From NCBI RefSeq assembly GCF_013122565.1, contig NZ_CP053258.1: a DNA stretch of 64,000 nucleotides; one strand, given 5' to 3'. Origin of the DNA: Escherichia coli. GTDB lineage: Bacteria > Pseudomonadota > Gammaproteobacteria > Enterobacterales > Enterobacteriaceae. Made by a program: the position numbers and the translations under genes. Under the pieces are notes generated by a model. That model searched no databases and was not told where the DNA came from. It was given only the letters and a program-made list of their open reading frames with translations. Shown here in pieces: positions 16,965 through 17,129 of the stretch; the stretch's first letter is position 1, and every line of letters begins with the position of its first letter.

Positions 16965-17017
16965 AGTTATTTCCTTATTTTTAAGCAGGCGAAACAAAAT
17001 CAAACGTTGAGCATAGT

Positions 17018-17036
17018 CCTTCCCCTTACGGGAAGG
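17018..17036. promoter_or_regulatory. CueR (MerR-family) operator in the cueO promoter
   Basis: Perfect dyad ccttcc-N7-ggaagg (ccttccccttacgggaagg) about 55-70 bp upstream of the cueO start. Confidence 0.7.
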
Positions 17037-17129
17037 TCAAGCCGCAGACACAATTTAATCGACAATAATGGTCGTCGCCTCGCTCGCAGTGTGCTAACGT
17101 TTATCTTCTTTAAGCCCCTGGTAGAAGCA

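Follow-up and report, generated by a model that had tools for sequence, protein, structure and literature searches.

We found that the inverted repeat CCTTCC-N7-GGAAGG, which lies at 17018..17036 between the divergent genes cueO and yacC of Escherichia coli, is almost certainly the operator of the MerR-family regulator CueR, placed in the 19-bp spacer of the cueO promoter P1, and that yacC stands apart from it; CueR binding and the dependence on the dyad are taken here from the literature. In fact, the CueR operator of cueO is a textbook element, already known, and it offers no new lead: E. coli copper homeostasis has two classic promoters under CueR control, and cueO P1 is one of them. The 165-bp region between the two genes has now been mapped completely: besides cueO P1 it holds a weak cueO promoter farther upstream (P2) and, apart from both, the highly conserved promoter of yacC. 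Comparative and transcriptomic evidence has been added that yacC is not co-induced with cueO. Moreover, a MerR-type operator proved recognisable from raw sequence. All positions refer to the window, the whole 64-kb stretch of DNA that was analysed, unless K-12 coordinates are named.

The cueO-yacC region and the promoter P1

The stretch 16965..17129 is exactly the 165-bp intergenic region between the ATG of cueO at 16964 (minus strand) and that of yacC at 17130 (plus strand), and the dyad was thus placed rightly between two divergent genes by the initial annotation. The coding sequence of cueO (15414..16964, minus strand) was identified from its open reading frame, Pfam, and existing annotation as that of a multicopper oxidase with a Tat signal peptide, and the Pfam search found the domains Cu-oxidase_3, Cu-oxidase_2, Cu-oxidase, and TAT_signal in its product. 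The open reading frame of yacC (17130..17477, plus strand) encodes a PulS/OutS-like periplasmic protein or lipoprotein, which matched PF09691 with E = 2.5e-9. For all its PulS/OutS-like character, YacC is not the pilotin of the secretin GspD. The stretch around the dyad is 99.8% identical to complete E. coli chromosomes, in which cueO is annotated and the gene order is gcd, cueO (minus strand), yacC, speE, and speD (plus strand), then yacL and acnB. Only one position within the intergenic region differs from K-12 MG1655, namely 16980 (T here, C in K-12), which is located in the cueO 5' UTR and outside every promoter element. The gene cueR is present in K-12 at 513993..514400, outside the 64-kb window.

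Several Rfam matches were observed elsewhere in the window. The family PssrA ("plasmid-encoded Shigella sRNA A") matched with 105 bits at 48518..48607 (minus strand), at the junction of the end of ftsA with the start of ftsZ, and this family may have been modelled on, or be related to, the chromosomal ftsZ leader region. Matches at the gathering score were also obtained for tp2 at 30916..31029 (plus strand), STnc40 at 42802..42871 (minus strand), and naRNA4, a nucleoid-associated RNA derived from REP elements, at 42304..42381 (minus strand); these are ordinary E. coli features.

The sequence CCTTCCCCTTACGGGAAGG at 17018..17036 matches CCTTCC-N7-GGAAGG exactly, as had been described before, and the two arms in fact pair over 7 bp (CCTTCCC-N5-GGGAAGG). 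The dyad, to which no strand is assigned, is the sole match to its pattern in the 64 kb and remains so at a tolerance of one mismatch (0.10 matches expected by chance), and the exact pattern appeared in none of 100 dinucleotide-preserving shuffles.

The elements of P1 were read from the minus strand around this dyad. The -35 hexamer TTGACC (17040..17035) and the -10 hexamer TATGCT (17015..17010) are separated by a counted spacer of 19 bp (17016..17034), which is too long for a sigma-70 promoter and typical of MerR-type promoters, whose spacers measure 19-20 bp. Read in the direction of cueO, P1 is CTTGACC-TTCCCGTAAGGGGAAGGAC-TATGCT; the inverted repeat lies between the -35 and the -10 and fills the spacer, and the last two bases of the dyad overlap the -35 hexamer. 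A published Cappable-seq start site, K-12 137043(+), corresponds to position 17004 of the window (mapping checked), 6 nt past the -10 and thus at the proper distance on its 3' side, leaving a 5' UTR of 40 nt (16965..17004, minus strand). The orthologous promoter of K. pneumoniae, TTGACC-19 bp-TAAGCT, also starts 6 nt after its TAAGCT. A standard sigma-70 scan of 16700..17400 with 16-18-bp spacers found no promoter, because the P1 spacer measures 19 bp and the -35 of the yacC promoter is weak; the promoters were therefore identified by eye, with published start sites as anchors.

According to the literature, CueR is a sensor of Cu(I)/Ag(I) that activates two genes, copA and cueO, and crystal and cryo-EM structures attribute this activation to an allosteric distortion of the promoter DNA. 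Already in 2006, a comparative study assigned to the yacC-yacK divergon a CueR site whose spacer measures 19 nt, yacK being the old name of cueO. In a 2026 RNA-seq preprint (doi 10.64898/2026.03.12.711415), cueO was up 44-fold at 2 mM Cu and 26-fold at 8 mM Cu, and cueO is a member of the Copper i-modulon. The full-text literature search gave no match to the operator sequence itself, and the apparent mentions of CueR in RegulonDB papers were false word matches. With the 19-bp spacer, the register shared with copA, the start site, and the copper induction of cueO, the proposal that the dyad has the geometry of a MerR-family (CueR) operator within a promoter spacer was borne out.

The switch at cueO would work as follows. 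A CueR dimer would sit on the dyad with or without metal. As long as Cu(I) is absent, the -35 and the -10 would be too far apart and out of phase, leaving P1 nearly silent, and Cu(I)-loaded CueR would kink and undertwist the spacer, realign the two hexamers of this sigma-70 promoter for RNA polymerase, and so turn cueO on. The gene yacC is transcribed from a separate promoter, some 80 bp away, and does not belong to the switch. We infer the distortion steps at cueO from structural studies of CueR on the copA promoter, which are well established.

Conservation of the operator and the upstream promoter P2

Eighty cueO loci were taken from different species of Enterobacteriaceae, and 79 cueO-yacC intergenic regions, that of the window included, were aligned. 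The divergent order of cueO and yacC was kept in 78 of the 80 loci, with a short intergenic region (140-200 bp). The elements of P1 were strongly conserved: the mean identity of the -35 to the window rounded to 1.00 over the 79 loci, so that this hexamer is essentially invariant, and its only variant, CGTCAA (plus-strand reading, first base changed), was found in just two loci (L060 and L070). The mean identity of the -10 was 0.92, and every one of the 79 loci had a -10-like hexamer at the fixed 19-bp offset, AGCATA or AGCTTA in 77 of them and one-base variants in the other 2. The right arm of the dyad, GGAAGG, was conserved at 0.97 and the left arm at 0.83. The surroundings were less conserved, with 0.43 for the cueO 5' UTR and 0.25 for the stretch from the -35 to the yacC promoter. 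A perfect 6+6 dyad was found in 13 of the 79 loci, including species of Escherichia, Citrobacter, Klebsiella, and Raoultella. Outside Escherichia the left arm is mostly CCCTCC, and there the dyad is usually imperfect.

The proteins of the two genes differed in conservation. YacC was 82-100% identical across 78 species of Enterobacteriaceae, and the neighbouring CueO was less conserved (72-98%). The tblastn alignments of CueO spanned 515 to 547 columns among genera; as a guess, this length variation reflects a variable methionine-rich insert. In addition, no speE was found within the DNA examined on the 3' side of yacC (about 2.5 kb at most, and less where a few loci were shorter) in the Citrobacter freundii complex, Klebsiella oxytoca/grimontii, and Kluyvera (loci L008, L010, L011, L014, L016, L028, L038, L040, L042, L048, L055, L057, L071-L073, and L077), where an insertion may lie between yacC and speE.

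Upstream of P1 there is a second, weak cueO promoter on the minus strand (17045..17057), known from published start sites. Its start, K-12 137002(+), maps to 17045 (mapping checked) and was recorded in two independent data sets (20 reads in one, a score of 1.8 in the other), and a -10-like TAAATT lies at 17057..17052. The P2 start is located 5 bp upstream of the P1 -35, so that the P2 transcript reads through the CueR operator. This second start site shows that cueO is not transcribed wholly from P1. That CueR might block the P2 transcript is speculative, and it is the one angle that is loosely novel. The stretch with the P2 -10 was absent or unalignable in 60 of the 79 loci.

Considering that the P2 transcript carries the dyad, the repeat could be thought to act as a nucleic-acid hairpin, for example an attenuator or terminator in the P2 leader of cueO, rather than as a protein site. 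A stem of 7 bp with a 5-nt loop is indeed predicted in the 81-nt P2 leader, and the start site upstream of the dyad appears in both data sets. However, the fold of this leader is ordinary (z = -0.62; 60 of 200 shuffles folded at least as well), and no U-tract follows the stem. The dyad was present in all 79 loci, including the 60 in which the stretch with the P2 -10 is missing or cannot be aligned. Moreover, 48 of the 79 loci retain 5 of the 7 dyad pairs (CCCTCC versus GGAAGG), and the changes are not compensated in the opposite arm; such a pattern is to be expected of a protein-binding site and speaks against a conserved hairpin, a reading that we consider highly unlikely. More improbable still is a chance palindrome without function. 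Nothing speaks for it beyond the fact that short palindromes arise by chance, while the shuffles yielded no such dyad, the dyad stands in the copA register relative to the -35 and the -10, and it is conserved across genera unlike its flanks. Its conservation and the match in register already refute this explanation.

The yacC promoter and its relation to copper

A start site of yacC is given in the table of Kim et al. (2012) as K-12 136940(-), which corresponds to 17107 in the window (mapping checked) and leaves a 5' UTR of 23 nt (17107..17129, plus strand). It lies exactly 7 nt after an extended -10, TGcTAACGT, at 17092..17100 (plus strand), whose identity was 0.98 across the 79 loci and whose end keeps a fixed distance of 28 or 29 bp to the ATG of yacC. 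The yacC start sites of K. pneumoniae lie after the homologous TGCTAATTT. Two further blocks on the plus strand are putative promoter elements: a weak -35-like TCGTCG at 17072..17077 (identity 0.88), 17 bp upstream of the extended -10, and a conserved A/T block at 17062..17069 (identity 0.75), which resembles an UP element. Within the latter, AATAAT (17064..17069) was tried as the -10 of yacC, with a -35 beside the CueR box, and was rejected on account of the start site at 17107 and because the candidate -35 is not conserved; it is better taken as UP-like. The extended -10 of yacC, GTGTGCTAACGTT, has a C at -13; it hardly varies and is similar to promoters with a preference for sigma-S. Nothing usable on a link between yacC and RpoS was found in the literature search.

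The position of the dyad relative to this promoter bears on the suggestion in the initial annotation that yacC could share the copper-responsive control of cueO. Counted from the start of yacC, the dyad has its centre (17027) at -80, and the operator spans -89 to -71. With the start at 17107, the dyad centre thus falls outside the yacC spacer, core promoter, and UP region. The operator is not inside the yacC promoter spacer, as MerR-type activation would have it, nor does it overlap the yacC core promoter or start, as in the occlusion at PmerR. A mirror-image MerR-type promoter on the plus strand was also tried and rejected, as the hexamers that flank the dyad, TTGAGC (17007..17012) and TCAAGC (17037..17042), are 24 bp apart and make no usable promoter. 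Furthermore, the geometry is not conserved: the distance between the dyad centre and the yacC extended -10 ranged from 52 to 111 bp across genera, being 55/56 bp in 60 loci, 65-67 bp in 14, and 52, 62, 76, 100, or 111 bp in the others. Where the DNA that separates the dyad from the yacC promoter changes in length, it often does so in steps of about 10 bp (55/56, 65-67, 76). No claim of helical phasing is made, because these represent only about seven independent events and the distances of 52, 62, 100, and 111 bp do not fit.

The transcriptomic data point in the same direction. Both yacC (b0122) and speE (b0121) are absent from the two complete lists of genes that copper raised 2-fold or more (487 and 364 genes; doi 10.64898/2026.03.12.711415), the same lists in which cueO is up 44-fold and 26-fold. 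The listing of i-modulon members, the Copper i-modulon included, does not name yacC; the supplement of the i-modulon paper treats yacC-speED as one operon. A Reg-Seq study of 2025 had yacC among its promoters and used copper conditions, and its text and supplement contain no result for yacC. The absence of yacC from the induced lists and from the i-modulon listing argues against its induction by copper. Taken with a promoter of its own, a dyad at -80, and a variable spacing, shared copper-responsive control of yacC is not supported.

Could the operator nevertheless be shared, so that copper also controls the divergent yacC, or yacC-speED, either directly or through an interplay of the two back-to-back promoters? 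Such an interplay might involve polymerase alpha subunits that compete for upstream DNA, or supercoiling induced by transcription. The nominal footprint of RNA polymerase reaches about -55. Judging by the starts at 17004 and 17107 and this nominal footprint, two polymerases, one bound at cueO P1 and the other at the promoter of yacC, would touch or overlap at their upstream edges; the compact divergent arrangement kept in nearly all loci and the many spacing changes near 10 bp also speak for a shared operator. Against it stand the dyad centre at -80, the unusable hexamers on the plus strand, the variable operator-promoter spacing, and the absence of yacC and speE from the copper-induced lists, and the published summaries name copA and cueO alone as activated by CueR. 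We therefore regard a shared operator as unlikely. Hardly more probable is a modest modulation of the neighbours, in which CueR occupancy or a copper-fired P1 would block or compete with P2 and could also tune the yacC(-speED) promoter; the latter could come about by competition for upstream DNA or by local supercoiling. Such an effect of copper would be weak and indirect, below 2-fold or repressive, and thus beyond the reach of lists of induced genes. As YacC is uncharacterised and unusually well conserved, a link to copper would have been mildly interesting, but the data argue against it. The reading in which the operator serves cueO P1 and yacC has its own promoter is preferred.

Comparison with copA, other cueO loci, and the mer operon

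The closest known counterpart of the cueO site is that of copA, the other classic CueR target. The K-12 copA promoter shares the arms CCTTCC-N7-GGAAGG, the -35 TTGACC, the 19-bp spacer, and the two-base overlap between the dyad and the end of the -35. The copA site, CCTTCCCCTTGCTGGAAGG, is a CueR box whose register is that of the cueO site, CCTTCCCGTAAGGGGAAGG, and the layouts of the cueO and copA promoters agree base for base (CTTGACCTTCCCCTTGCTGGAAGGTTTAACCT versus CTTGACCTTCCCGTAAGGGGAAGGACTATGCT). The copA promoter reads CTTGACC-TTCCCCTTGCTGGAAGGTT-TAACCT. The two differ in the 7-bp centre of the dyad, which is CGTAAGG in cueO and CCTTGCT in copA when read towards the gene, and in the -10, TATGCT in cueO versus TAACCT in copA. 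Unlike copA, cueO has the extra weak upstream start site at 17045. Induction differs in degree as well, since copA was up 115-fold at 2 mM Cu in the same experiment (doi 10.64898/2026.03.12.711415) and cueO was induced less.

In Salmonella, Klebsiella, and other Enterobacteriaceae, the orthologous CueR sites of cueO (cuiD) have the same -35, 19-bp spacer, and right arm as the site described here. Most genera differ from it in the imperfect left arm CCCTCC.

The mer operon of Tn21/Tn501 has a similar architecture, with a dyad operator within the 19-bp spacer between the elements of PmerT. MerR is bound there with and without metal and activates by DNA distortion, and the divergent PmerR overlaps the operator and is repressed. 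At mer, then, the divergent promoter overlaps the operator, whereas here the yacC promoter lies 55-80 bp beyond it, with its start at +80 from the dyad centre. Moreover, unlike merR beside the mer operator, yacC encodes a protein unrelated to the regulator and shows no induction by copper.
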